DNA from: Armatimonadota bacterium
Lineage (GTDB): Bacteria > Armatimonadota > UBA5829 > DTLH01
DNA length: 64,000 nt
Assembly: GCA_039679675.1 (NCBI GenBank)
Contig: JBDKUN010000022.1
Coordinates: forward strand, 11,403-75,402
Direction of reading: 5' to 3'
A program made the position numbers and the translations under genes. Each line of letters opens with the position of its first letter. The first letter of the stretch is position 1. This document shows positions 2,950 through 64,000 of this stretch, piece after piece. Below the pieces are notes generated by a model. The model did no database searches, was not told where the DNA came from, and saw nothing but the letters and a program-made list of their open reading frames with translations.

Positions 2950-3915
2950 GTGGACGAGCGAGCGTTTATAGAAAGAAGGCGGCCTGAGTGGGAACACCTC
3001 GCGGAACTACTTCGCAGGACCTCCACTCGCGGCGGACTCCAATCTCTTTCCGGTTCCGATCTTTCGGATATCGGCAAGCTATACAGGCGCGTGACTTCCG
3101 ACCTGTCTTATGTTAAATCCAACTCTGTAAACGATGAGTTGATCATATATCTAAACGAACTTGCCGGCCGCGCTCACGGGGTTCTGTATATAGATCAGTC
3201 CACCGATGGTCTTCACTCAGTAATTCAATTTCTTCTTCGAGGGTTCCCAATCCTCTTTCGTGCAAAGAAAAGATTTATGGCAATAGCTGCGGCGTTGATG
3301 ATATTGTCGTGTATTTTTTCGGCGGCAATCGTCGCGCATGACTCAAGAACCGCTGGCTATTTTATTCCGACCAGTTTTCAGGACGCTGGCAGAAACAGCG
3401 TTCGCCCTGACAATGAGCTGCCCGCTTCATTCTCAAGCTTTCTTATGACCCATAATATCCAGGTCAGCCTTTTCGCATTTGCAGGAGGAATCTCGTTTGG
3501 GATCTTTACAGCCTTCGCATTGATCCAAAACGGCCTGATGCTCGGTGCATTTCTCATTAAACCCTACCCGTTCCTGAAGGACCCTCTGGACATAATAGCC
3601 TTTCTGTTTCCGCACGGTTTCATCGAGCTTACAGCGATAGCAATTGCGGGAGGAGCCGGTCTGATGCTGGGCTGGTCGCTGATCGCACCAGGCAACCTGA
3701 CGCGCTGGGACTCACTAAGAAAAGCCTCCAGCGAAGCCATACCGCTTATGGGCGGTGTGGTAGCAATGCTCGTAGTTGCAGGCTGCATAGAAAGCTTCGT
3801 ATCCAGGACATCCGTTCCGCGCGGCCTCCAGCTTACCGTAGCAGCGGTATCTGCCGTTTTGCTGGTTGTATACTTCGGATTTGCAGGGCGCAGGGAGACT
3901 AAGGCTTCCAGGTAA
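2950..3915 (+). CDS. SpoIIM/DUF95 family membrane protein
   Basis: LYRRVTSDLS, YLNEL, THNIQV, PHGFIEL, AGCIESFVS; usual partner of RDD genes. Confidence 0.9.
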   Translation: MDERAFIERRRPEWEHLAELLRRTSTRGGLQSLSGSDLSDIGKLYRRVTSDLSYVKSNSVNDELIIYLNELAGRAHGVLYIDQSTDGLHSVIQFLLRGFPILFRAKKRFMAIAAALMILSCIFSAAIVAHDSRTAGYFIPTSFQDAGRNSVRPDNELPASFSSFLMTHNIQVSLFAFAGGISFGIFTAFALIQNGLMLGAFLIKPYPFLKDPLDIIAFLFPHGFIELTAIAIAGGAGLMLGWSLIAPGNLTRWDSLRKASSEAIPLMGGVVAMLVVAGCIESFVSRTSVPRGLQLTVAAVSAVLLVVYFGFAGRRETKASR

Positions 3916-4465
3916 GGTAAATCATGCATTCTTCATAATGGCAGTCCGGATGGACCATCCAGCCCGATATAGTGAAACCCTGAGACAGGTAGAACTTCAC
4001 GGCCGGATAATAATCGAACCCGGTCCAAAGGCTGACCAGCGATTTCCCTGAGTTCACACAATAGCACTTCACAGTTTTGAGCAACTCCCGGCCGATACCT
4101 TTTCCCCGCGCTTCCCTGTCCACAGCTATCGTTGCAAGCATATACTCGCCCGGCTTCGCCATGCAGAAAGGGATATCTCTGACAAGCGGCATACAACAAG
4201 CAGCTCCGACTATCCGTCCACCGTCCTCAGCGGCAAGAAACAGGTCGTAGCGGTCATACTCGTCATGGTATCTCATTGCAGCATTGGATGAGGTGCTGCC
4301 AAAAATCGGAGGCATGACTTCTTTCGGTGGATCGGCATCAACAGTCACAAGGTGAGGTTCGAAAGGATTACTGTATTCGATCTTGTAGGTCTTGCTGGTA
4401 ACAAATGACGGATCGATCTCAGCCAAACGATGGCATTCGTCAGCGCCCAAGTTGCGAATAATCAT
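3899..4465 (-). CDS. GNAT family acetyltransferase
   Basis: IAVDREARGKGIGRELL motif A; AVKFYLSQGF; ATGA overlap with nuoN stop. Confidence 0.85.
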   Translation of the reverse strand: MIIRNLGADECHRLAEIDPSFVTSKTYKIEYSNPFEPHLVTVDADPPKEVMPPIFGSTSSNAAMRYHDEYDRYDLFLAAEDGGRIVGAACCMPLVRDIPFCMAKPGEYMLATIAVDREARGKGIGRELLKTVKCYCVNSGKSLVSLWTGFDYYPAVKFYLSQGFTISGWMVHPDCHYEECMIYLTWKP

Positions 4466-5913
4466 AGCATTAGTCTCCAGACGGCATCGGTAAAAGCCTG
4501 TGTGCTGTTCGGAAAAAGAAAAAGCCAGATTGTTGCTATTACTGCAATGCCGATGACTATCGCAACCGGCACCGGTACGTTGACTGCGGGCTCGCTTTCA
4601 TGTTTCTCCATAAACATTATGACCGTTATCCGCAGGTAAAAATAGGCTGATATTATAGTCGTTATTATGGCAACTATCAAGAGCCCAGTTAATTTTGCAT
4701 TAACAGCAGCCATAAAAATATATATTTTTGCCGTAAAGCCGGATGTTGGCGGCAGCCCTGCAAGTGCGAACATAAACACAGCCATAGAGCCTGCAAGGAG
4801 CGGATTTCGCCAGAAAAGACCGCTGTAATTATGAATTCCTGTAGCTTCTTCGCCTTTTTTCGTGACAGCCGTTACCACCGCCCACGCGCCGAGGTTCATA
4901 AATGCATAAGCGATCAGATAGAACGGGATGCTTTGAATGCCAAATTGATTGGCCGATGCTACCGCGACCAGTATATAGCCTGCATGAGCGATACTTGAGT
5001 AAGCAAGCATCCTTTTTATGTTGTCCTGCGCGATTGCAACGACATTTCCTATGATCATCGTAAGCGCAGCTACCGCCCAGATGGCAGCAAGCCAGACACC
5101 GCTCAAATCGCTGAAAGTGAAGACGAGAATACGCGTAAGCGCGGCAAACGCCGCCGCTTTTGTGGCAACGGACATATATGCCGTGACCGGTGACGGTGCA
5201 CCTTCGTAAACGTCCGGTGTCCACATCTGAAATGGTACCGCTGCTACCTTGAATGCGAGCCCTACCAGTATCAAACCTGCCCCTGCGAGGAGAATCGGGT
5301 TGCCTGGCATTCCCCGTGAGGCAAGAACAGATGCAACACCCCGCATATCGGTAGTGCCGGTCGCTCCATAGATGAGCGCGACACCGTATATTAAGATCGC
5401 TGCCGAGAATGAGCCCAGCAGAAAGTATTTCATCCCCGCTTCCTGCGACCTCTGCCGCCCGGTTGCAAAGCCTGCCATAATATAGAGCGCAATCGACAGT
5501 ATCTCCAGGCTGAGAAAAACCATAATCAGGTTGGCACTCGATGCCAGAAAGAGCATTCCGACGGTGGAAAGAAGCATAAGCGAGTAGTACTCGCCCTGTT
5601 GGAACTCCTCGCGCCTCGCATAATCGACAGAGAGCAGTATGGCAAGCGCAGCGGCAGTCAGAATCACCATTTTGACAAGCTCAGAGAAGTTGTCTGCAAT
5701 GAGCATCCCCCCGAACCCAGAAAGATGCCGTCCCCACATAAAGCCGACTGCCACAAGCCCGGCGATGCACCCGATGAGCGCAACCCACGGAGAAGCCTTA
5801 TCCGACGCGCGCTTGGCAAAGGCGTCCAGCATCAAAATGATCGCAGCTGTGACGATGAGGATAATCTCAGGGATTACAACAACCCAGTCCGCCGCGCTGA
5901 AAGGAATCCTCAT
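4462..5913 (-). CDS. nuoN: NADH-quinone oxidoreductase subunit N
   Basis: EAGMKYFLLG, FKVAAVPFQMWTPDVYEGAP, QDNIKRMLAYSSIAHAGY. Confidence 0.96.
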   Translation of the reverse strand: MRIPFSAADWVVVIPEIILIVTAAIILMLDAFAKRASDKASPWVALIGCIAGLVAVGFMWGRHLSGFGGMLIADNFSELVKMVILTAAALAILLSVDYARREEFQQGEYYSLMLLSTVGMLFLASSANLIMVFLSLEILSIALYIMAGFATGRQRSQEAGMKYFLLGSFSAAILIYGVALIYGATGTTDMRGVASVLASRGMPGNPILLAGAGLILVGLAFKVAAVPFQMWTPDVYEGAPSPVTAYMSVATKAAAFAALTRILVFTFSDLSGVWLAAIWAVAALTMIIGNVVAIAQDNIKRMLAYSSIAHAGYILVAVASANQFGIQSIPFYLIAYAFMNLGAWAVVTAVTKKGEEATGIHNYSGLFWRNPLLAGSMAVFMFALAGLPPTSGFTAKIYIFMAAVNAKLTGLLIVAIITTIISAYFYLRITVIMFMEKHESEPAVNVPVPVAIVIGIAVIATIWLFLFPNSTQAFTDAVWRLML

Positions 5914-7889
5914 CGTTCTACACCCTTTTCTTCGGAGGTCACGGGGTGTAGGTATGCTTCTGATTGGTGGAGGACCGTGCTTCGGGACGGACTGCGGTCC
6001 CGAAGCATATTAAGTTTCTCGACACCTGCGGTGTCGGCTTCGGCAGCAAGCAGTCCGAAGCAACTAGCGATCACAACGTCATTCCGAGCTTGACTCGGAA
6101 TCAATTTTGGAATGGGCTCTGAATCAAGTTCAGAGTGACGTGGGGGAAATGGACCCTGAATCAAGTTCAGGGTGACGTGGTTGTCGTTTTTTGCATCGGA
6201 CTGCTTGCTGCCGATGCGGGCCGATAGGCCCAATACGGAGGATACTTCGGCGCGCGTAGTTTGCGCCGAAGCCAGCTTTTGGGATTGGTGGAAACTCGTG
6301 CTTCTCCCCGTGATCCGGTAGGTCCACGGGTTAGCACGTAGACTGGCCACTACTTCTTTCACTCCAAGTTTCTGTTCCTTGTTCCCTCTCACCTGTTCCC
6401 TGTTTCTCACGGCTTCCATCACTCTTCCTGCTGATGCTTCCGTTCTCGAAAGAACTGTACCTGGAAAAGCACCCAACAGAATGATGAAGAGTATTACTGG
6501 CGTGAGGACGAATATTTCCCGAACCGTAAGATCGCGCATACTGCGTATTGCGGGCTTTTCGGTTGGCCCCTGCATCACATTGCCGTAGAGCCACAGTATG
6601 TAAATCGTGGAGAGCACGACTCCACTTGCCGTAAGCGCGGCATATATCCAGTTTCTGGCTAAAAACGTGCCGACTACCACTAGAAACTCGCCAGGGAAGT
6701 TCGATAGGCCCGGAAGCCCAAGTGATGCGAGAGCTGCAAGCATGAAGAATCCGCCGAGTACGGGCATCACCTTCCAAACGCCGCCGAAATCGGCCATCAA
6801 CCGGCTGTGCCGTCGGTCATAGAGGATTCCGACAACAAGAAACATCGCGCCTGTAGCAAGCCCGTGGGCAATCATCAGGAGGAGCGCGCCCTGAATCCCC
6901 TGTATATTGAATGCGAATATCCCCATTACGACGAACCCAAGGTGGCTTACGCTAGAATATGCCACAAGCCGCTTTACATCCGGCTGAGCGAAGGCTACAA
7001 GCGCTCCGTAGATGATCCCGATTATCCCGAGCACGATAAGCAGCGGTGCAAAGTATACCGCTGCTAACGGGAAAAGCGGCAGGCAGAACCTGAGGAACCC
7101 GTAAGCCCCCATTTTGAGAAGAATTCCCGCCAGAATGACGCTTCCGGCGGTCGGAGCCTCTGTGTGGGCGTCAGGAAGCCACGTGTGAAGCGGAAAAATC
7201 GGTATTTTGATCGCAAATGCGAGGCCGAATGCCCCGAACAGCCAGAATTGGATATTTCTGGCTATCGGCCCGGCAGATGTCAGCTCTAAAAGATCGAAAG
7301 TTACACCGGTAGGGTTTTGGAACCCCAGATATATGATCGCAACGAGCATTAAGAGGCTTCCGACCAGGGTGTAGATGAAGAACTTGATCGAAGCGTAAAT
7401 CCGGTTTTGATACCCCCAGACCCCGATTATAAAATACATCAGAATCAGCATTGCGTCCCAAAAAACGTAAAAAAGTATCAAGTCGAGCGAGACGAACACG
7501 CCGATCATCGCTCCAAGGAGAATCAAAAGTGAAAAATAGAACTCCCTTGCGTGATCGGTGATGCTCCTCCATGACGCAAGCATCGCAACAGGCACCAAGA
7601 AAGTAGTAAGGAGCACCAGAAACAGGCTGATTCCATCTATTCCAACGTGGTAGTTGATGGCAAATCGAGCCGTTTTGACCCACGGGACAACCTGCTGGAA
7701 CTGCATCCCGGTGGTTTTGAGGTCGAACCAGAAAAACAGCGGGACCGCTATAGCAAACGTTACCACGGCTGCCGCAAGCGAGAACCAGCGGATGAGCGCA
7801 TCGAACCGTCTCGGTATGAGAAGCACCATTATGCTCGCCGCTACCGGCAGAAAGATCAGTATAGATAGTATGTTGTCTCTTATAAACAT
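5910..7889 (-). CDS. nuoM: NADH-quinone oxidoreductase subunit M with repeat-derived C-terminal extension
   Basis: GIDGISL, PLHTWLPDAHTEAPT, KRLVAYSSVSHLG; homology ends near aa 495, ORF continues to aa 659. Confidence 0.95.
   Translation of the reverse strand: MFIRDNILSILIFLPVAASIMVLLIPRRFDALIRWFSLAAAVVTFAIAVPLFFWFDLKTTGMQFQQVVPWVKTARFAINYHVGIDGISLFLVLLTTFLVPVAMLASWRSITDHAREFYFSLLILLGAMIGVFVSLDLILFYVFWDAMLILMYFIIGVWGYQNRIYASIKFFIYTLVGSLLMLVAIIYLGFQNPTGVTFDLLELTSAGPIARNIQFWLFGAFGLAFAIKIPIFPLHTWLPDAHTEAPTAGSVILAGILLKMGAYGFLRFCLPLFPLAAVYFAPLLIVLGIIGIIYGALVAFAQPDVKRLVAYSSVSHLGFVVMGIFAFNIQGIQGALLLMIAHGLATGAMFLVVGILYDRRHSRLMADFGGVWKVMPVLGGFFMLAALASLGLPGLSNFPGEFLVVVGTFLARNWIYAALTASGVVLSTIYILWLYGNVMQGPTEKPAIRSMRDLTVREIFVLTPVILFIILLGAFPGTVLSRTEASAGRVMEAVRNREQVRGNKEQKLGVKEVVASLRANPWTYRITGRSTSFHQSQKLASAQTTRAEVSSVLGLSARIGSKQSDAKNDNHVTLNLIQGPFPPRHSELDSEPIPKLIPSQARNDVVIASCFGLLAAEADTAGVEKLNMLRDRSPSRSTVLHQSEAYLHPVTSEEKGVER
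5962..6406. repeat. Mosaic of palindromic repeat families inside the nuoM 3' end
   Basis: Units at 6018-6063, 6077-6102, 6115-6140, 6151-6177, 6193-6217, 6245-6271, 6298-6332 and 6334-6353 each match intergenic copies elsewhere in the window. Confidence 0.9.
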
Positions 7890-7911
7890 AGTTATTTAGA
7901 AAAGCAGTCTC

Positions 7912-8060
7912 TGATGGACCGGGGGATCATGCCCCGGTCCACATTCTCCAGGGCATCCATGCCCATTACTACCGTTTCAAAATGCTTCGGGATTCTTTTC
8001 TTCCCGAAGCACGAATTTCCACAAACCTCTTTGGAGTGCGGCGGCTCGACGCCGCTTTTC
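7912..8060. repeat. REP-like cluster between nuoL and nuoM
   Basis: GACCGGGGGGATCATGCCCCGGTC, GGGCATCCATGCCC, GCTTCGGGA..TCCCGAAGC, GGAGTGCGGCGGCTCGACGCCGCTTT. Confidence 0.8.
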
Positions 8061-8102
8061 TATCGACATCCGTAAATCTTCCGACCTATACCCCATAGCC
8101 TT

Positions 8103-10019
8103 TCACCTTCTAATCACCAGATACCCGACCAGAAGCACTGCCCCTATGAATATTGCAAGGGCATAGTTGCGGAGAAAACCGGTCTGCACACGGCGGATAA
8201 CCTCCGACACCCAGCCGACCAGATAAGCCACACTGTTCACTATAAAATCGATTATGCCTACATCTACCGCACGCCACAAAAATGCTGCAAGCGCCTTTCC
8301 GGTCCTGACGAAGACAGTGTTATACACTTCATCGACCCAGTATTTATTGGAAAGCGTGTTATACACAACCGGCGCACGCTCAGCGACCTGAGCAGCCAAC
8401 CACAGCTTTCGGACATAGAAATACCAGGCGATAGTAATCCCGATTAGGCTTACTACAAGCGCAATTCCGGCAAGCACTAACCCTGATGATGAAGCTGCCG
8501 CACTTACAGGCCCATGAGCCAGCGCTGGTCCAAGGAATGTGTCGATAGCATTTGTCCATGACAGACCCGGCGCGATGAACTTCGGAATACCGGCAACTCC
8601 GGCAACGAGCGCACCTATCGCAAACACGATCATTGCGATTGTCATGGACGGCGGCGATTCATGCATATTCGTAAACCGATCTTCATCCATCCTCGGGCTG
8701 CCGTGAAACGCTTTAAAAAACAGCCGAAAAACATAAAATGCCGTCATAAGCGATGTCGCAAGCGCCAGTCCGTAGAGAGCGCCGTTGCCGAGCGGAGATA
8801 TGAGCGCCGCAGCAAGAATCGCATCCTTGCTAAAAAAACCTGAAAACGGAACAACTCCCGATATGGCAAGCGCAGCGACGAGAAAAGTCCAATAGGTAAT
8901 GGGCATTTTCGCTTTCAGTCCGCCCATCTTGCGTAAATCTGTCTCACCCGAAAGCGCGTGCATAACGCTTCCTGCCCCCAGGAACAAAAGTGCCTTGAAG
9001 AATGCGTGAGTCATCAGGTGGAAAAGCCCCGTTCCGAATGCGCCGACACCCACGCCGAGGAACATGTATCCGATCTGGCTGATGGTAGAGTAAGCAAGCA
9101 CCCGCTTTATATCATTCAACACAAGTGCGATGGTTGCCGCAAAGAAAGCCGTGGACACGCCCACTATGGCAACTACGAAAAGCACAGAAGGAGCCTGGAT
9201 GTAGAGCGGGCTTGCTCTAGCGATCAGATAGACCCCCGCAGTGACCATCGTAGCGGCATGGATTAGTGCACTGACCGGAGTTGGACCTTCCATCGCGTCC
9301 GGCAGCCACACGTAGAGCGGCAACTGGGCGGATTTTCCTACAGCGCCGATTAAAAGAAGTGCCGCAATCGCTGCAACAGCACCTTTTGCAGCAGTCGGGA
9401 CAGCGGAAAAGACTCCGCCGTATGAGAGCGTCCCGAATGTGATAAATACCAGGGCAACACCCAGCATGAAGCCGAGGTCCCCCACCCTCGTAGTGATGAA
9501 TGCCTTTTTCCCGGCTGCAACCGCTTCCGGCTTTCTATACCAGAAGCTTATGAGGAGATAAGAGCAAATCCCGACCAATTCCCAACCGGCAAAAAGGAAG
9601 AGAAAGTTATCTGCCATCACCAGAATAAGCATCGAGAAGACGAATAGGTTCATATATGTGAAGTAGCGCGAATAACCTTCGTCGTCACCCATATAACCCG
9701 TCGAATAGATGTGGATGAAGAAGCCGATACCGGTCACTATGAGCATCATAAAGACCGAAAGCGGGTCGATGAGTATTGCCGCATCGGCTTTGAGGCTCCC
9801 GGATGCCACCCATGTATAAAGCGTGCTCGTGACATGGCGCGCGCCTACCGGCATACGGATAAGCTGCAGAAAGACTGCGACAGCTACCGCGAACGCTCCG
9901 CCGACGAGTGCGCATGCGATGGCTCCCACAAGCTTTCTTGGCAGGACCCTTCCGAATATCCCGTTTATTATGGTGCCGATAAGCGGCAACCCCGGTGCGA
10001 GCCACGCGTAATCAAACAT
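8103..10019 (-). CDS. nuoL: NADH-quinone oxidoreductase subunit L
   Basis: GKSAQLPLYVWLPDAMEGPTPVSALIHAATMVTAGVY, HAFFKALLFLGAGSV. Confidence 0.97.
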   Translation of the reverse strand: MFDYAWLAPGLPLIGTIINGIFGRVLPRKLVGAIACALVGGAFAVAVAVFLQLIRMPVGARHVTSTLYTWVASGSLKADAAILIDPLSVFMMLIVTGIGFFIHIYSTGYMGDDEGYSRYFTYMNLFVFSMLILVMADNFLFLFAGWELVGICSYLLISFWYRKPEAVAAGKKAFITTRVGDLGFMLGVALVFITFGTLSYGGVFSAVPTAAKGAVAAIAALLLIGAVGKSAQLPLYVWLPDAMEGPTPVSALIHAATMVTAGVYLIARASPLYIQAPSVLFVVAIVGVSTAFFAATIALVLNDIKRVLAYSTISQIGYMFLGVGVGAFGTGLFHLMTHAFFKALLFLGAGSVMHALSGETDLRKMGGLKAKMPITYWTFLVAALAISGVVPFSGFFSKDAILAAALISPLGNGALYGLALATSLMTAFYVFRLFFKAFHGSPRMDEDRFTNMHESPPSMTIAMIVFAIGALVAGVAGIPKFIAPGLSWTNAIDTFLGPALAHGPVSAAASSSGLVLAGIALVVSLIGITIAWYFYVRKLWLAAQVAERAPVVYNTLSNKYWVDEVYNTVFVRTGKALAAFLWRAVDVGIIDFIVNSVAYLVGWVSEVIRRVQTGFLRNYALAIFIGAVLLVGYLVIRR

Positions 10020-10020
10020 T

Positions 10021-10323
10021 TCATCCCTTCATCGAGTTGAGATCGTCGATGTTTATGTCTCCGCTCAACCGGAAGATCGATACGATTATTCCAAGGCCTA
10101 CGGCGACCTCTGCAGCCGCAACCGTCAGGATTATGAACACAAAAATATGCCCATCGAGCGTTCGTTGATACCTTGAAAAAGTGATAAATGCCAGATTAGC
10201 CGCGTTCAGCATCAGTTCGATGGACATAAACATAATGATCGGATTGCGGCGGATGAGAACGCCGAGCGCGCCTATCACAAAGAGCGCAGCGGACAAAATC
10301 AGGTAATAATAAGCCGGAAGCAT
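10021..10323 (-). CDS. nuoK: NADH-quinone oxidoreductase subunit K
   Basis: [26 protein letters not shown]; start moved to ATG 10323 after GAGG. Confidence 0.93.
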
Positions 10324-10327
10324 AACC

Positions 10328-10840
10328 TCAGCGCCTCCTCTTCGCAAGCACAATCGAGCCGACCATCGCAATAAGAAGCAGTATACTTGTCGCCTCGAAC
10401 GGCAGCAGGTAATCTGTATATAAAAGCCTCCCAATCGGTGCGGATGTGCCGAAATTTACCGGCAATGGCCCACCCTTGGGGACAGTCTTAAACGCTCCGG
10501 TCAAAAGAGCGGCTGCTGCAAGCAATAGAAGAACCATTCCGAATATAACGGCCAGCCATTTCTGAGCCGGAAGCTCGTCCCGCACGTCTTCGATTGCACC
10601 GGTCATGTTGAGGAGCATCACAGCGAACAGGAAAAGCACCATAATCGCTCCGGCATAGATCAACACCTGAATGAATGCGATGAACTGAGCAGAAAGGACA
10701 AGATAGAACATCGCAAGCGTGAAAAAGTTGACGACAAGGAGCAAAACGGCATATATGGGGTTCTTCGAAAGCACAACTGCCACCGCCGTTCCTACAGAAA
10801 CCACTCCAAGAATGATGAATATTATCAGTTCGGTAAGCAT
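10328..10840 (-). CDS. nuoJ: NADH-quinone oxidoreductase subunit J
   Basis: [28 protein letters not shown]. Confidence 0.95.
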
Positions 10841-10860
10841 TTTTCAGTCATTAGTAGAGA

Positions 10861-11015
10861 CGTCACCCTAAACAACAATTACGTCACCCTGAACTTGATT
10901 CAGGGTCCATTGTTTTCCTGGATGCTGAGCCAAGCTCAGCATGACGTATTTCCCATAACCCATGCTTCGGGACCGCAGTTACCCCATGGACCTACCGGAC
11001 CACGGGGAGAAGCAC
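10861..11015. repeat. Inverted REP-like pair plus CCCCRTGG..CCACGGGG hairpin at the usual nuoI position
   Basis: CGTCACCCTGAACTTGATTCAGGGTCC 10882-10908, inverted variant 10920-10946, hairpin 10981-11015. Confidence 0.85.
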
Positions 11016-11034
11016 AACTCTCCACCAGTAACCC

Positions 11035-12195
11035 CTAAATCCTCTCTCCCGCCATCCTGCGCCTTATTCCTCTTCTGAAGAGGTATGAAGAGACAAAGAA
11101 TCCGGCTATCGTCAAAACCACACTCACTATGCTGAGCATCAGAACGGACCTGTTCGGGAAGAACGCTATTACTAAAGCCGTGATACCTGCGTTCAGCAGC
11201 GCCACCGGAAGCGATATCTTCCACCCAAGCCCCATCAACTGGTCAAAACGGACTCTGGGCCACGTCCCCCGGACCCAGATAAATGTATAAAGGAATAGCA
11301 TCAGCTTGAGCACAAACCATACCGGCTGAAGCCACACAATGTTTGTAAAGAGCCTGTAGCCACCTAAAAAGAAGGTCACAGCTATTGCGCTGATTGTCAC
11401 CATACCCAGATACTCAGCCATAAAAAACATCGCAAACCTGAAGCTGGAATACTCCGTGTGATACCCTCCGATCAGTTCCTGCTCGGCTTCAGGCAGATCG
11501 AAGGGCGCCCGGTTGACTTCTGCCGTTCCTGATACAAGGAAAATCACAAACGCTAAAAGCTGAGGGATGATGAACCATATCCCTGCTGCGCCCTGCGCGT
11601 TTATGACTCCGTTCAACCTAAGCGTTCCGGCAAGTATCAACGGCCCGATAAGCGCGACCCCGAGCGGAAGCTCGTAAGAGAGCATCTGTGCCGACGAACG
11701 CATACCACCGAGAAGCGAATATTTATTCGCCGATGACCATCCGGCGATTACAATCCCGTAGACGCCGAGTGCTGACAGTGCGAGCACCAAAAGTATTCCT
11801 GCATCGAGTTCAGGGACATAAAACCCACTTGGCCCGTGATACTCTCCCATAATCTGAAGCGTAAAACTCCGTCCGGCAATCGTCAGCATCCCGCCGATGG
11901 GGATTACCGCGATAGCCAGAAGCGCGGGGACCATCAGCATCGCAGGTGCGAGAGTGTAGAGCCACCTATCAGCCCGTTCGGGCGTAATGTCCTCCTTCAA
12001 TAGGAGTTTTAGGGCATCGGCTATCGGCTGCAAAATGCCGAATGGCCCTACTCTGTTCGGCCCGATACGCACCTGGATGTCTGCGATCACTTTCCGCTCT
12101 AGCCAGATCATAAACGGGACCATCAGCATCCAGAGCGTGAAGACCACAACCACCAATATCAGTTTTACAATTATGTAGATAACTATTTCAGGCAT
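11035..12195 (-). CDS. nuoH: NADH-quinone oxidoreductase subunit H
   Basis: ERKVIADIQVRIGPNRVGPFG, NRAPFDLPEAEQELIGGYHTEYS. Confidence 0.97.
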   Translation of the reverse strand: MPEIVIYIIVKLILVVVVFTLWMLMVPFMIWLERKVIADIQVRIGPNRVGPFGILQPIADALKLLLKEDITPERADRWLYTLAPAMLMVPALLAIAVIPIGGMLTIAGRSFTLQIMGEYHGPSGFYVPELDAGILLVLALSALGVYGIVIAGWSSANKYSLLGGMRSSAQMLSYELPLGVALIGPLILAGTLRLNGVINAQGAAGIWFIIPQLLAFVIFLVSGTAEVNRAPFDLPEAEQELIGGYHTEYSSFRFAMFFMAEYLGMVTISAIAVTFFLGGYRLFTNIVWLQPVWFVLKLMLFLYTFIWVRGTWPRVRFDQLMGLGWKISLPVALLNAGITALVIAFFPNRSVLMLSIVSVVLTIAGFFVSSYLFRRGIRRRMAGERI

Positions 12196-12208
12196 TTTCT
12201 AAATAGAT

Positions 12209-12525
12209 GTAGTGGCCGGTCTCCGCGCCGGCCATCAACCCCGTGGACTCACCGAACCACGGGGAGCACCGCAGGTGACGGATAATCTAGGGTATGCTTC
12301 GGCGCGTATTTTACGCCGAAGCCGGATTATCGAACTGGTGGAAAATGTGCTTCGGGAAGAAAAGAATCCTGAAGCATAGAATAGGAACCCTGAATCACGT
12401 CACCCTGAACTTGATTCAGGGTCCATTTTTCATCCTGGATTCCGAGTCTATGGATTTTCGGCTATGGCCGAAAATCTTCCGGGAGAGTTTCCGATACTAC
12501 CGGAAACTCCTTAGCTCGGAATGAC
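12209..12525. repeat. REP-like cluster at the usual nuoG position, with one nested element
   Basis: GTAGTGGCCGGTCTCCGCGCCGGCC, CCCCGTGG..CCACGGGG, GCTTCGGCG..CGCCGAAGC, CGTCACCCTGAACTTGATTCAGGGTCC 12398-12424, split unit 12437-12525. Confidence 0.85.
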
Positions 12526-12528
12526 CTA

Positions 12529-13806
12529 TTACCCATGACCTTCCCACCCTCCAAAAGGACATTTGCCTTCCTTAATGTGTGCTTCGTACTCGTCTCGGAA
12601 ATACTTTATACTCGATACGACCGGCTGGGCTGATGCGTCACCGAGCCCGCAAAAGCTCCGCCCGTCAATGTTCTTCGCCACATCGACCAATCTGTCGATA
12701 TAACCGATCTTACCCGTTCCTTCTTCTATGCTTTCGAGCATTTCTCTCATCCAGAGCGTGCCTTCTCTGCAGGGAGTGCATTTCCCGCAGGACTCATGCT
12801 CATAAAACTTCGCCATGTTCCATGTGGCGCGCACGATGCAGGTGTCCTCGTTTAGAACCATAAACCCCGCGGAGCCGAGCATCGAACCGGCCGCCTGGAG
12901 CGTTTCATATGCCAACTGTACATCCAGATGCTCTTCGGTCAGCATAGGAACGGATGACCCGCCGGGGATAAACGCTTTCACGCGCTTTCCACCCGGTATC
13001 CCGCCTGCATGCTCGAATATCAGCTCGCGGGCAGTTACGCCCATAGGCAGTTCGTAGTTGCCTGGCTTATTGACATGCCCGCTCACGCTGAATATTTTCG
13101 TTCCGGGGCTCTTCTCCGTCCCGATTTTCGTGAACCACTCGGCACCGTTATTGATGATATGCGGGACATTTGCGAGGGTTTCGACGTTATTGATGACTGT
13201 AGGCCCGGCATAAAGCCCTTTGATCGCCGGAAACGGCGGCCTTAACCTCGGTTCGCCTCTTTGTCCTTCAAGCGAGTTCAAAAGCGCCGACTCCTCACCG
13301 GCGATGTATGCCCCTGCGCCCCTGTACATCTGTATCTGAACATTAAACCCGGACCCTAAGATATTCTCGCCGATGTATCCACGGTCGCGAGCCTCAGAAA
13401 GAGCCTGCTCCATTTTTCTCAGGGGCTCTACATACTCGCCGCGAATATATATGAACGCCCGCTCTGCGCTGATTGCATAGCAGCAGATGATCATCCCCTC
13501 GATAAGCTGGTGAGGATTCCTGAGCATAAGTTCACGGTCTTTGAATGTGCCCGGTTCGCTCTCATCGGCGTTGCAGCAGAGATATTTCTTCAGGTTCGGG
13601 TCCTTCGGAATATACTCCCACTTCTTCCCGGTGGGGAAACCCGCGCCGCCGCGTCCCCTCAAGCCCGATTTCGTGACGACATCTGTCACCTCTTCAGGCT
13701 TCATCTGCTTGATGGCCTTCTCGAGCGCAGAGTAGCCACCTTCGCGGATGTATACATCAATGTTATCTATGTCAGGCACATCCAGATGCTTGAATAGTAT
13801 CCTCAT
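12529..13806 (-). CDS. nuoF: NADH-quinone oxidoreductase subunit F
   Basis: GLRGRGGAGFPTG, NADESEPGTFKDR, ESCGKCTPCREG, CGLGD. Confidence 0.97.
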   Translation of the reverse strand: MRILFKHLDVPDIDNIDVYIREGGYSALEKAIKQMKPEEVTDVVTKSGLRGRGGAGFPTGKKWEYIPKDPNLKKYLCCNADESEPGTFKDRELMLRNPHQLIEGMIICCYAISAERAFIYIRGEYVEPLRKMEQALSEARDRGYIGENILGSGFNVQIQMYRGAGAYIAGEESALLNSLEGQRGEPRLRPPFPAIKGLYAGPTVINNVETLANVPHIINNGAEWFTKIGTEKSPGTKIFSVSGHVNKPGNYELPMGVTARELIFEHAGGIPGGKRVKAFIPGGSSVPMLTEEHLDVQLAYETLQAAGSMLGSAGFMVLNEDTCIVRATWNMAKFYEHESCGKCTPCREGTLWMREMLESIEEGTGKIGYIDRLVDVAKNIDGRSFCGLGDASAQPVVSSIKYFRDEYEAHIKEGKCPFGGWEGHG

Positions 13807-14288
13807 CCGCTCTCTCCGGCCTTTCTTCTGAGCTCATCCAGGATGCCGTCGAGCTTTTCCGGCGTCAAATTGTCGTAATATGCGTCGCCGACCATCATAA
13901 CGGGGGCGTTTCCGCAGTCCCCCAGGCATTGAACTGCTCTCAGCGTGAACATCCCGTCCGGCGTAGTCTCATCGACCTTGATTCCAAGCTTTTTGTACAA
14001 ATAATCGATCAGATGCTCCGCGCCCAGGAGTGAACAGGTGAGTGTCGTGCAAACATCCAGCCTGTACTTACCGGCTGGCTGCTTCTGGAACAACGTGTAA
14101 AAGGTCGCTACTGCCTCGACGTCGGTGTAAGGCATCCCCAAGAGTTCGGCGATTTCCTGCATGCCGTCTTCGGCCACAAAACCCTCCTCGTTTTGGACCA
14201 CATAGAGAGCATTCAAGATAGCCGATTTGGCTGAGGGGAATCTCTTTGCGTTCTCTTCTATTTGGGCTCTCGATTCTTGCGACAGCAT
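13803..14288 (-). CDS. nuoE: NADH-quinone oxidoreductase subunit E
   Basis: 2Fe-2S ligands CTTLTC and CLGDC-x2-AP; VATFY. Confidence 0.95.
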   Translation of the reverse strand: MLSQESRAQIEENAKRFPSAKSAILNALYVVQNEEGFVAEDGMQEIAELLGMPYTDVEAVATFYTLFQKQPAGKYRLDVCTTLTCSLLGAEHLIDYLYKKLGIKVDETTPDGMFTLRAVQCLGDCGNAPVMMVGDAYYDNLTPEKLDGILDELRRKAGESG

Positions 14289-14293
14289 TGCAC

Positions 14294-14668
14294 CTACTCA
14301 CCTATGCATAAGTCGAGCGCGCCCTTCTTCCAGATATATATGTAGCCGATTACAAGGACGCCGAGGAAAACAAGCATTTCGAAGAATAAGAAGACCTTCG
14401 CAGCTCCGGCTGTAAGAAAAATAACAGCCCAGGGATACAAAAAGACGATTTCTATATCGAAGAGTATAAAAAACATCGCGACCAGATAGAACCTGATCTG
14501 GAACCTGCTTTTTGTGGTGCCGATGGGGACCATACCGGACTCATAAGGCTCAAGCTTATCAGCGCTTGGGTGTTTGGGGCCCAGGAGACGTGACAAGAGT
14601 ATCGATACGCCTGCAAACCCGGCCGCGATTATGAAGAGAATGATGAATGGAATATACTGAATAAGCAA
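14294..14668 (-). CDS. nuoA: NADH-quinone oxidoreductase subunit A
   Basis: KLEPYESG, FILFDIEIVFLYPWA, WKKGAL; TTG 14668 follows AGGAGG. Confidence 0.93.
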   Translation of the reverse strand: MLIQYIPFIILFIIAAGFAGVSILLSRLLGPKHPSADKLEPYESGMVPIGTTKSRFQIRFYLVAMFFILFDIEIVFLYPWAVIFLTAGAAKVFLFFEMLVFLGVLVIGYIYIWKKGALDLCIGE

Positions 14669-14785
14669 CCCGCCGGCCTCCTGCAATCGGTATTCCCGCT
14701 TGCAGAAGGGCTTGAAACATGAAGAATCACCTGTTGACGCTCATTGCCGCACAGCTTATACTTTGACATGTGAGGATTGTGATGG

Positions 14786-16618: not shown

Positions 16619-17941
16619 GTGAATTACAAGAAGCCGATGCATAAAAATAATACCATGCCATCGACTGCGGCACCGCGGAGTCGCCGTGTCTTCCATCTGC
16701 TCATCGCCTGCTCCGTAGTTTTATCGATAATCCTTGCATACTTCACAACAGGCTTCAAGGGGGATATCAACTGTTTCACCAGCTGGGGGCAATACGGTTT
16801 CACCAACAAGTTATTACACATTTATGACACCCCGCCGAAAGGCATCTTTCTTTATCCTCCGCTGGGAATGTATCTTTGCGTTATAACGAACTACCTGGGC
16901 TCGTTTTTCGGTATAAGCCCAGCATCACAGTTATGGGTCCTGATGCTGAAACTGCTGCCGATAATTGCTACTGCACTTGGAGCATATATCGTTCGGGCGA
17001 TTGTCCGGCAGTATCAAAGCGAAAAGATCGCGTTCTACTGTGCTGTTTTATATGCATTCAACCCGGCTTTGCTTATGAATGGCCCGGTATTCGGCCAGTG
17101 GGAACCGATTCTGTTACTTTGCGTTTTGGGCATGATCTGGTGTATGGTTAACCGCAAGGAGTGGGCAGTCGGTCCTATACTCGCTTTTGCCTTACTGATC
17201 AAACCACTGATCATTATTTCAGTTCCGTTAATAATATATAGCCTGATAGTATACGGCGGTATGCGAAAGTTCATCCTGAGTGTCCTGTGGGGTTGTGTCG
17301 CGTTTTCACTTGTAATTCTCCCATTCATCATAGTCGGCACCGCAGTTCCATTGGCAAAAACACTATTTGCAGCTTCGGATGTCTCTCCAATCAAGTCGAT
17401 TCAAGCTGCCAATTTCTGGTGTCTTTATCAGACACTGGAAACTATCGTAACAGGTACCCCCAACCTATCATCCGGGCATGGCTCTTTTTTGGGAGTAGCC
17501 AGTTGCAAGCTGGTGGGACAATTGGCATATATGGGGTTCTTGTTGTTTATCATGCTGAAGTGGAAGAAACAAAAAAACTTCACGGTGTTGATAGCCGGAT
17601 TCTTCCTCGCATGGTTTGGAGCTTTCCATATTCTGACAGGGATGAGCGCACGTTACATCTTGACTGCTGTAGGCTTTTCGGCACTCTTGCCTATGGTTAA
17701 CCGCCGCTACGCTATCCTGTATTTCGCTGTTTCGGTAATCGCAGCACTGAATATATTGCTGGTTTATCTCTTTAGCCAGCCAGCCGGAGTCGAGTGGCCG
17801 ATTGCAGTGAAGTATGGCAAATGCCTTCTGGCTGTGATCAATTTGCTTTTATTTGGCTTTGCAATCGGGACATTCCTGTCCCACATCAAAAACGATACGG
17901 CGAAAATATCAGATAACCGCGCCAACAAGCTGATGCGGTAG
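16619..17941 (+). CDS. GT-C fold polytopic glycosyltransferase (GT87/PIG-M-like)
   Basis: GD-x3-F-x2-W, YPPL, FNPA-x7-FGQWE, ALLIKP; many TM helices. Confidence 0.75.
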   Translation: MNYKKPMHKNNTMPSTAAPRSRRVFHLLIACSVVLSIILAYFTTGFKGDINCFTSWGQYGFTNKLLHIYDTPPKGIFLYPPLGMYLCVITNYLGSFFGISPASQLWVLMLKLLPIIATALGAYIVRAIVRQYQSEKIAFYCAVLYAFNPALLMNGPVFGQWEPILLLCVLGMIWCMVNRKEWAVGPILAFALLIKPLIIISVPLIIYSLIVYGGMRKFILSVLWGCVAFSLVILPFIIVGTAVPLAKTLFAASDVSPIKSIQAANFWCLYQTLETIVTGTPNLSSGHGSFLGVASCKLVGQLAYMGFLLFIMLKWKKQKNFTVLIAGFFLAWFGAFHILTGMSARYILTAVGFSALLPMVNRRYAILYFAVSVIAALNILLVYLFSQPAGVEWPIAVKYGKCLLAVINLLLFGFAIGTFLSHIKNDTAKISDNRANKLMR

Positions 17942-34381: not shown

Positions 34382-34612
34382 CGCGAAATACGCAAAGAAG
34401 CACGAAAAACGCAAAACTCGACACCTACGGTGTCGGCTTCGGCAGCAAGCAGTCCGAAGCAAAAGGGATTGGTGGAGACTTACCGACAACATCATCCCGA
34501 ATAGCTAAACATCATCCCAAGCTATCACAACTCCATCCCGGATGGCCACAACGTCATCCCGAACTTGATTCGGGATCCAGGAAAAATAGGCTCTGAATTA
34601 AGTTCAGTAACG
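34382..34612. repeat. Repeat cluster (CGCGAAA-rich unit, 46-nt nuoM-tail unit, stuttered REP)
   Basis: 34382-34415 matches 36577-36611; 34417-34462 matches 6018-6063 with 1 mismatch; REP 34552-34578. Confidence 0.85.
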
Positions 34613-63571: not shown

Positions 63572-64000
63572 GTCAGTAACCTCCGGCAGAGCCGGAGTCT
63601 TGTAATATGGGAACCGCTCAAAGCGGTTATCTGTTCGTCATTTATGAGCCGCCCAAGGCGGCATCAGCACAACTTAAGTTGATCGATCCGTTTGTCTTCC
63701 GCCTCTTGTTGGCGGATATACTCTTGGATCATCTTCTCATCTTTTCCAACTGTGGATACAAAATATCCACGAGCCCAAAATTGCTCGCCGGTGAAGTTCT
63801 TTTTCTTTCCGGCATAAGTCCGTGCTATGTGTATGGCACTCTTGCCTTTGATATAACCTATCACCTGTGCAATACTATATTTGGGCGGTATGCTGATCAG
63901 CATATGCACGTGGTCAAGCTGCAGACTTCCCGTCTCGATGCATGACTCCTTGTGTCGAGCCAACTCGGTAAACAGCTTGCCCAATTCATTTCTGATGTGA
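63572..64000 (-). mobile_element. IS200/IS605-family insertion sequence, right part
   Basis: Y1 transposase plus subterminal hairpins 63581-63597 and 63612-63628. Confidence 0.85.
63664..64000 (-). CDS. tnpA: IS200-type HUH/Y1 transposase, 5' end outside window
   Basis: DHVHMLISIPPKY, IKGKS, FWARGYFVSTVG, YIRQQ. Confidence 0.95.
   Translation of the reverse strand, partial: HIRNELGKLFTELARHKESCIETGSLQLDHVHMLISIPPKYSIAQVIGYIKGKSAIHIARTYAGKKKNFTGEQFWARGYFVSTVGKDEKMIQEYIRQQEAEDKRIDQLKLC

Follow-up and report, generated by a model that had tools for sequence, protein, structure and literature searches.

Several families of dispersed palindromic repeats have been described, copies of which are read in frame as part of a protein. 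Here, we describe the nuoM-nuoN junction in a 64,000-nucleotide (nt) stretch of DNA (the window; contig JBDKUN010000022.1 of assembly GCA_039679675.1, an Armatimonadota bacterium), in which NuoM ends in a tail of 160 codons that is largely built from such repeats and overlaps the nuoN start codon. This tail probably consists of repeats that landed in a dispensable 3' end of nuoM and were retained only where ribosomes could still arrive at the nuoN start. NuoM is a membrane protein that is essential and for which the subunit ratio is of importance, and to our knowledge the reason why the reading frame is retained when palindromic repeats insert, a behavior known since the Rickettsia palindromic elements (RPEs), has mostly been left open.

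Described systems of in-frame repeats

For intragenic GTAG/CGTC repetitive extragenic palindromes (REPs), inserts of 20-30 amino acids (aa) have been described, with the largest clusters reaching 43-82 aa and about 10% lying at gene ends (Di Nocera, De Gregorio and Rocco 2013, PMC3733652). Like those, the repeats at the nuoM-nuoN junction are short dispersed palindromes, mostly extragenic and sometimes in frame, and three of the units described below (U3-U5) begin with CGTC on the hairpin strand. In contrast to the cases reported there, about 123 aa are contributed here by eight units of about six families, a relative reaches up to ~187 tail codons, and the insertions are linked to a stop/start overlap of 4 nt and recur at a single junction in several lineages.

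An RPE is a single element of ~150 bp with a conserved peptide of its own, and RPEs are spread across many genes (Ogata et al. 2000, via PMC10969869 and PMC3184786). Both cases share selfish palindromes that lie in frame within housekeeping genes and an added peptide that is tolerated (PMC10969869, PMC3184786). The likeness is one of behavior only, since here many short units of several families are piled on one C-terminus.

Mycobacterial interspersed repetitive units (MIRUs) insert at cistron junctions with the -4 coupling kept, whereby their own small open reading frame (ORF) is coupled on both sides (PMC12548453, PMC3184786). The position at a cistron junction and the preserved -4 stop/start overlap are common to both systems. 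In contrast to the MIRUs, which represent one unit family in fixed orientation, the hairpins here belong to several families and form no separate small ORF, but are fused to nuoM and lengthen a real protein.

Furthermore, ERIC, BOX, RUP and Correia-type repeats extend the 3' ends of genes (Delihas 2011, PMC3184786). Here as well, a chromosomal gene is prolonged at its end by a fused repeat frame. However, in that review these are single elements, usually without evidence of frame selection, whereas the frame maintenance reported here is comparative.

In the literature searched, with subscription journals outside its coverage, no account of repeat-built NuoM tails was found, nor one of a stop/start overlap acting as a filter for the in-frame accretion of REPs. 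Compared to the known in-frame repeats, the new features are the larger size, the mixed families, the recurrence at one junction and the frame maintenance seen by comparison.

Anatomy of nuoM and its tail

The features of the junction are the following:

5910..7889, minus strand: nuoM ORF, 659 aa, stop codon counted in the coordinates
6393..7889, minus strand: NuoM core, aa 1-499, with NuoM/ND4 homology by Pfam, PDB chains and orthologue alignment
5913..6392, minus strand: C-terminal tail, aa 500-659, 160 stop-free codons
6333..6392, minus strand: start of the tail, aa 500-519, unique non-repeat sequence, prolonging the last predicted helix
5913..5961, minus strand: unique terminal segment of nuoM, containing the Shine-Dalgarno-like (SD-like) sequence AAGGGUG (5921-5927) for nuoN
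5910..5913, minus strand: ATGA, overlap of the nuoM stop codon and the nuoN start codon
4462..5913, minus strand: nuoN, 483 aa, downstream of nuoM

The identity of NuoM is given by a Proton_antipo_M domain (PF00361, aa 134-426, E 2.4e-73), by full-length similarity to NuoM and by the position between nuoL and nuoN. The best PDB matches are NuoM/ND4 chains of 438-542 aa, which cover aa 6-492 with E down to 2.4e-127. Alignments with orthologues fade at about aa 495-511, and the end of the core was placed at aa 499 from an alignment of 12 orthologues.

In an AlphaFold2 prediction (12-sequence alignment, mean predicted local distance difference test score, pLDDT, of 67) the last helix of NuoM comprises aa 477-519. 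The following residues 520-659 have a pLDDT of 27-36 and no secondary structure. The C-terminus of NuoM is one that we take to be periplasmic. With aa 495-659 as query, a search of 5.8 billion proteins returned NuoM itself and one further protein (P0002), a weak repeat-derived match; the same search missed the tail of the relative G001 despite the module that it shares with the query.

Repeat units composing the tail

The region 5850-6450 was compared by BLAST to the window's own genome (G000; 3.14 Mb, 66 contigs). Each position of 5962-6330 is covered by 30-60 matches in G000, and the flanking segments 5910-5961 and 6331-6410 are single-copy. The repeat-built part of the tail thereby amounts to ~371 nt (5962-6332), or ~123 of the 160 residues, and consists of eight hairpin units, which fall into about six families and have 10-59 further copies each in G000, in both orientations. 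From the core toward nuoN these are:

6280..6332, minus strand: U8, peptide NPWTYRITGRSTSFHQSQ, 14 other copies in G000
6243..6277, minus strand: U7, hairpin, peptide KLASAQTTRAEV, 10 other copies
6189..6217, minus strand: U6, hairpin, peptide RIGSKQSDAK, 45 other copies, a reverse-orientation relative of the U2 3' half
6147..6181, minus strand: U5, hairpin with CGTC tag, peptide NHVTLNLIQGPF, 44 other copies
6110..6144, minus strand: U4, a variant of U5 in another reading phase, peptide PPRHSELDSEPIP, 29 other copies, direct repeat
6070..6104, minus strand: U3, hairpin with CGTC tag, peptide LIPSQARNDVVI, 53 other copies
6016..6064, minus strand: U2, double hairpin, peptide SCFGLLAAEADTAGVEK, 31 other copies
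5974..6011, minus strand: U1, hairpin, peptide NMLRDRSPSRSTV, 59 other copies

The units are found elsewhere in larger blocks. The 84 nt of U2 and U3 (6019-6102) are 98.8% identical to positions 44961-45044 of contig C21, 5963-6102 aligns to contig C57 at 81%, and the block of U7 and U8 recurs on contig C62 in an alignment of 85%. Within the tail, a 71-nt inverted repeat, i.e., a composite palindrome, is formed by the arms 6037-6107 and 6147-6217, which are 76% complementary. Since multi-unit blocks recur elsewhere and since this inverted repeat is present, it is likely that a few composite modules of several units gave rise to the tail, and not ten separate insertions.

A preliminary description of the window, made from its letters and ORFs alone, had placed an in-frame repeat tail of ~165 codons after the NuoM homology and counted about ten units of five families (A-E). 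The tail and its composition from several families are confirmed, with 160 codons and eight units as the corrected counts. The ATGA overlap with the nuoN start is present at the end of the tail as described, and the peptides VTLNLIQG, RHSELDSE, IPSQARND and CFGLLAAEA are all found in the NuoM translation. The reported match of 6018-6063 with 34417-34462 (45 of 46 positions identical) was reproduced. This is also true for the compensatory change: 6193-6217 differs from the reverse complement of 6037-6061 by a single exchange of a T:A to an A:T stem pair, and both variants (U6 and the U2 3' half) have further copies in G000, a covariation within the stem.

In being short, palindromic, dispersed and multi-copy, U1-U8 resemble REP/REPIN sequences, which measure 20-50 nt and lie mostly outside genes as imperfect palindromes in tens of copies, and the 12-mers of the repeats make up 2% of G000. 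CGTC precedes the stems of U3, U4 and U5; no such tag is evident at U1, U2, U6, U7 and U8. G000 contains seven matches to PF01797 (Y1 transposase), and two of these genes, on contig C28, have hairpin-repeat flanks in a REPtron-like arrangement. The flanking repeats of the C28 genes belong to none of the families of the tail, and no gene of a REP-associated tyrosine transposase (RAYT) with the tail's own repeats as flanks was found. A further one of the seven matches (Y1_Tnp, 63706-63996) is truncated by the end of the contig, and copies on contigs C25, C22, C44 and C39 also lie at contig ends, as expected of a multi-copy element of the IS200/IS605 type. An Rfam scan of 5700-6600 gave nothing above threshold, the only hit being ilvH with E = 0.24 and 20.6 bits, where the cut-off is 55.1.

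The 440 repeat clusters of G000 were scanned for coverage by long ORFs, which yielded 102 cluster/ORF pairs. Most of these lie upstream of likely true start codons or are repeats of paralogous genes, and the scan revealed no second case in which a long ORF ends in a large cluster of several units. The protein P0002 (C28, ~12283-12669; 412 aa; PF02621, a menaquinone biosynthesis family) crosses repeat clusters with its first ~130 residues, probably because its start codon was called too far upstream, and would then carry no genuine extension. At C21:17160-20108 an open frame of 983 codons runs stop-free in its first ~170 codons through a pair of repeat clusters (17223-17522, 17563-17661), which could be an upstream artefact or an N-terminal in-frame case.

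The nuoM-nuoN junction in relatives

Orthologues of nuoM were sought in 41 related genomes and then in all 53 genomes of the class. They were found at 55-91% identity in 14 genomes including G000, and a more distant one is present in G035; the nearest named relatives are Armatimonadota bins at 91, 75, 72, and 70% identity. At all 15 loci the nuoM frame is first closed by the TGA of an ATGA or GTGA, the start codon of which lies in the frame of the nuoN homology. A stop/start overlap of -4 nt that is conserved in relatives is one mark of a translationally coupled gene pair.

The tails themselves vary widely. In the 12 aligned loci they comprise 160, 84, 68, 42, 27, 21, 4, 95, 37, 187, 37, and 43 codons, and ~19 codons each in three more genomes. 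Between the end of the core and the nuoN start, the 12 loci contain no in-frame stop in 805 codons, compared to 29, 32, 24, 15, and 19 stops in the other frames, and for the five tails of at least 60 codons only one of the 25 frames other than that of nuoM is open. No orthologue examined has a stop near the end of the core, by which a recently lost or miscalled nuoM stop is ruled out.

The repeats differ from lineage to lineage. The cores of G000 and G001 are 90% identical, yet their tails share only one module (VTLNLIQGPF...IPSQARNDVVI) and the terminal motif SEE(K/R)G. NuoM ends similar to that of G000 are found in relatives (SEEKGVER, SEERGEKR), and the unique terminal segment with its SD-like element is kept in some form by every lineage. 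The tails of G001, G005, G007, G038, and G035 have 26-59 matches each within the genome they come from. With G000, tails built from dispersed repeats of the own genome are thus present in six genomes, in five genera, out of the eight tested. For G004 and G040, dispersed copies of the tail are absent from the genome, so not every tail is repeat-built; the search left out G002, G003, G009, and G036 with their short tails and the three genomes with tails of ~19 codons. In G038 the tail (positions 964-1469 of locus L010) is a tandem of 150 nt in 3.4 copies at 96% identity, which adds 50 codons per step, and its unit consists of hairpins that are dispersed in G038 (59 matches). In the tail of the congener G036 this unit is present only once, and matches to the G038 unit are also present in the G036 genome. 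For G035, whose genome is 60% complete, nuoN (locus L012) is matched by two tblastn segments in different frames across query aa 211-215, which may reflect a frameshift or an assembly error.

At more distant loci, mostly from Acidobacteriota, the nuoM stop lies at most 30 nt from the extrapolated nuoN start in 64 of 71 cases, a count that drops five loci (four with the frame running off the end of the locus, one without a usable nuoN match). Tails of 20-70 codons are common across phyla in this NuoM clade. Among the Acidobacteriota loci (L071, L078, L080, L092, L097, L106, L112, L119, and others), the tails of many Vicinamibacterales bins share peptides of the type GIRDWGLGI...SLNQSPIPNP, and others carry ERSER runs. 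This suggests tails that are repeat-derived or of low complexity in another phylum.

Could the tail be a selected part of complex I, serving for instance as spacer, docking arm or regulatory segment, for which the repeats were mere raw material? That C-terminal extension is tolerated or even wanted is indicated by the frequency of such tails across phyla, and the first 20 residues of the tail prolong the last predicted helix of NuoM. However, beyond the shared repeat module the tails of G000 and G001 are not conserved, tail length ranges from 4 to 187 codons, the larger part of the tail is predicted to be unstructured, and the protein search returned nothing beyond the query and the weak match. 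We regard this role as improbable.

The relatives also bear on the question whether the repeat mosaic was mis-joined in the metagenome bin, with a shorter true nuoM. Four public runs were found, with no RNA run listed among them, and the public contigs of two runs break within the repeats, none of those listed bridging 6100-6194. These k-mer contigs neither confirm nor contradict the path through U4 and U5, and the runs that hold them may be the source of the window itself and are then not independent. On the other hand, exact pieces cover 5700-6007, 5980-6045, 6046-6099, and 6195-6600 with zero differences, the units are shorter than ordinary reads, and the independent assemblies of the relatives have the same architecture with other repeats and likewise lack a stop at the core end. 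A mis-assembly is therefore very improbable.

Repeats at the other junctions of the nuo cluster

The nuo genes lie on the minus strand in the order nuoA-E-F-H-J-K-L-M-N, with a GNAT gene next to nuoN. Three true spacers within this operon serve as a contrast case:

7890-8102: nuoL-nuoM spacer, 213 nt, with an untranslated repeat cluster at 7917..8069
10841-11034: nuoH-nuoJ gap, 194 nt, with a repeat cluster at 10881-11015
12196-12528: nuoF-nuoH gap, 333 nt, with a repeat cluster at 12206-12525

Since all three clusters follow ordinary stop codons, being untranslated is the default wherever a spacer exists. Repeats stay untranslated if a stop precedes the insertion site, and only at the nuoM-nuoN junction do they lie in frame. 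As a side observation, every real spacer of the nuo cluster has been colonized by repeats, and one unit of the nuoL-nuoM spacer resembles the repeats that flank a Y1-transposase gene on C28.

The nuo cluster (4462-14686) lacks nuoB, C, D, G, and I. Matches to Complex1_49kDa (NuoD) are present on contigs C50 and C63 only, and a second nuoM paralogue (45% identity) lies on C50. The GNAT acetyltransferase gene (3899-4465) overlaps the end of nuoN by 4 nt (4462-4465) and, judging by this overlap, appears to be coupled to the nuo cluster.

The open frame and chance

How unusual is a stop-free frame across such a mosaic? Overall, the repeat clusters of G000 are not stop-poor, with 0.034-0.046 stops per codon. 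Among the frames of the 137 clusters of at least 120 nt, 53 of 276 (120-150 nt), 35 of 324 (150-200 nt), 9 of 120 (200-250 nt), 2 of 60 (250-300 nt), and 1 of 42 (300-500 nt) are open. If the units and spacers of the 371-nt part of the tail are permuted and flipped, a stated frame is open in 2.5% of the trials; if the order of the units is kept and their orientation and phase are randomized, in 1.8%; and if 371-nt stretches are drawn from the other 136 clusters, in 0.8%. A mononucleotide shuffle of all 160 codons is open in 0.14% (0.0014). A further factor of ~1/3 would apply, since the inserted length must be a multiple of three.

The value of 4e-4 given for the open frame in the preliminary description was consequently too small, because realistic null models yield 0.8-2.5% for the repeat part. 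The shuffled mosaics proposed there as a check reveal an open frame that is only moderately unusual and not extreme.

These numbers bear on the explanation that the tail is a neutral accident, according to which no selection acted on the frame when the repeats inserted, and the frame is open by chance because GC-rich hairpins carry few stops. Many unit cores indeed leave four, five or all six frames open in most of their copies in G000, although for U3, U4, and U5 two or three frames are closed (three for U5 in most copies), and 0.8-2.5% of open mosaics is not negligible given hundreds of clusters in the genome. Yet the outcome is repeated with different repeats in five further genomes (G001, G005, G007, G038, and G035), the five long tails are open in the nuoM frame and hardly in any other, the overlap is kept at every locus, insert lengths must also be multiples of three, and the clusters in the three spacers of the operon are not in frame. 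Taken together, a neutral accident is unlikely. For frame maintenance it is the comparative evidence that is decisive, the single-genome evidence being only moderate.

RNA features at the tail and the nuoN start

The mRNA of the tail is strongly structured, with a minimum free energy of -217.7 kcal/mol compared to -155.4 ± 7.6 kcal/mol (z = -8.2). In the minimum-energy fold the SD-like AAGGGUGU is paired by an 8-bp stem. A structured tail mRNA and a paired SD fit the models of RNA unfolding and re-initiation that are reviewed in PMC12548453. No terminator-like site was found on the sense strand of the tail.

It is also conceivable that cover by ribosomes was selected to protect the transcript against Rho-dependent polarity, RNase cleavage or termination, and not for re-initiation at nuoN. 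The strong structure of the tail RNA would fit, and polarity on untranslated RNA is established (PMC12548453). Against such a protection, the three other gaps of the nuo cluster hold untranslated repeat clusters of 130-320 nt, and the tail carries no sense-strand terminator-like site. We consider it rather unlikely, if slightly less so than a neutral accident.

A probable filter at the stop/start overlap

The preferred explanation is that the nuoM-nuoN overlap acts on the insertions. REP- or MITE-like dispersed hairpins (MITE, miniature inverted-repeat transposable element) would insert into the 3' end of nuoM, upstream of the ribosome-binding site of nuoN. With the nuoM stop lying inside the nuoN start, there is no spacer in which an untranslated repeat could be accommodated. 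An insertion would either be in frame and stop-free, or truncate nuoM and uncouple nuoN, and only the first kind is seen. Because the overlap leaves no spacer and only in-frame, stop-free insertions are seen, we infer that purifying selection favors ribosomes reading on through the hairpins and terminating at the nuoN start. The coupling might act via re-initiation, via unfolding of the nuoN ribosome-binding site, or via both. The peptide of the tail would be a by-product, presumably translated, disordered, unconserved even within the genus and swapped lineage by lineage.

That such a filter operates is suggested because the overlap is conserved, the terminal SD-like element is retained, the mRNA of the tail is structured and no terminator-like sites are present. 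Of the serial insertion filtered for frame and for the M-N overlap, as put forward in the preliminary description, the filter is retained on a comparative basis, while the ~ten insertion events probably have to be replaced by a few composite modules. Its statement that selfish intergenic repeats are read in frame as NuoM sequence is likewise supported by the comparison of relatives, translation being the presumed step.

Several points weigh against this explanation. The SD-like sequence of nuoN is its own, which makes independent initiation possible. In 82 nt around the nuoN start of 12 orthologues, the mean probability of the SD being unpaired varies from 0.16 to 0.78; having no shuffle control, this variable sequestration carries little weight and is not counted as evidence. 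Because the repeat cores are inherently stop-poor in several frames, the case from G000 by itself is weak, being only about 1-2.5% unlikely. The genomes are related and the comparative counts are not fully independent: one module is common to G000 and G001, and likewise one to G036 and G038. All genomes are metagenome bins, and the breaks of the public contigs within the repeats have to be added here. Finally, the nuoL-nuoM junction measures -7 to +25 nt in most relatives, but 213 repeat-filled nt in G000 and 80 nt with a hairpin in G009. Because this junction has been opened up in both genomes, uncoupling is not always harmful in the nuo cluster. The contrast within the operon therefore cuts both ways, since it reveals the default outcome, yet argues against a general intolerance of untranslated hairpins.

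Going one step further, the 4-nt overlap may act as a trap, in which repeats persist at nuoM-nuoN only as coding sequence and the tail is repeatedly gained, expanded and replaced. This broader idea, based among others on the tandem expansion by 50 codons per step in one lineage, is tentative and clearly less probable than the filter itself. The repeat-like NuoM tails of Acidobacteriota are a hint that it may extend beyond one phylum.

Implications

For the retention of the frame in palindromic-repeat insertions, the conserved overlap of the nuoM stop with the start of the following gene offers a concrete reason that can be tested. Several lineages with different repeats and the same outcome represent a natural series of replicates, and the junction suggests a simple reporter design to measure how far nuoN depends on the coupling. 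For annotators, it is a warning that a long and odd C-terminal tail can be a real reading frame if the genome is rich in repeats.

If the overlap indeed acts as a trap, translational coupling would be a general and predictable path from non-coding selfish DNA to protein sequence, and the tails would provide raw material from which complex I could gain new appendages on its periplasmic or cytoplasmic side.

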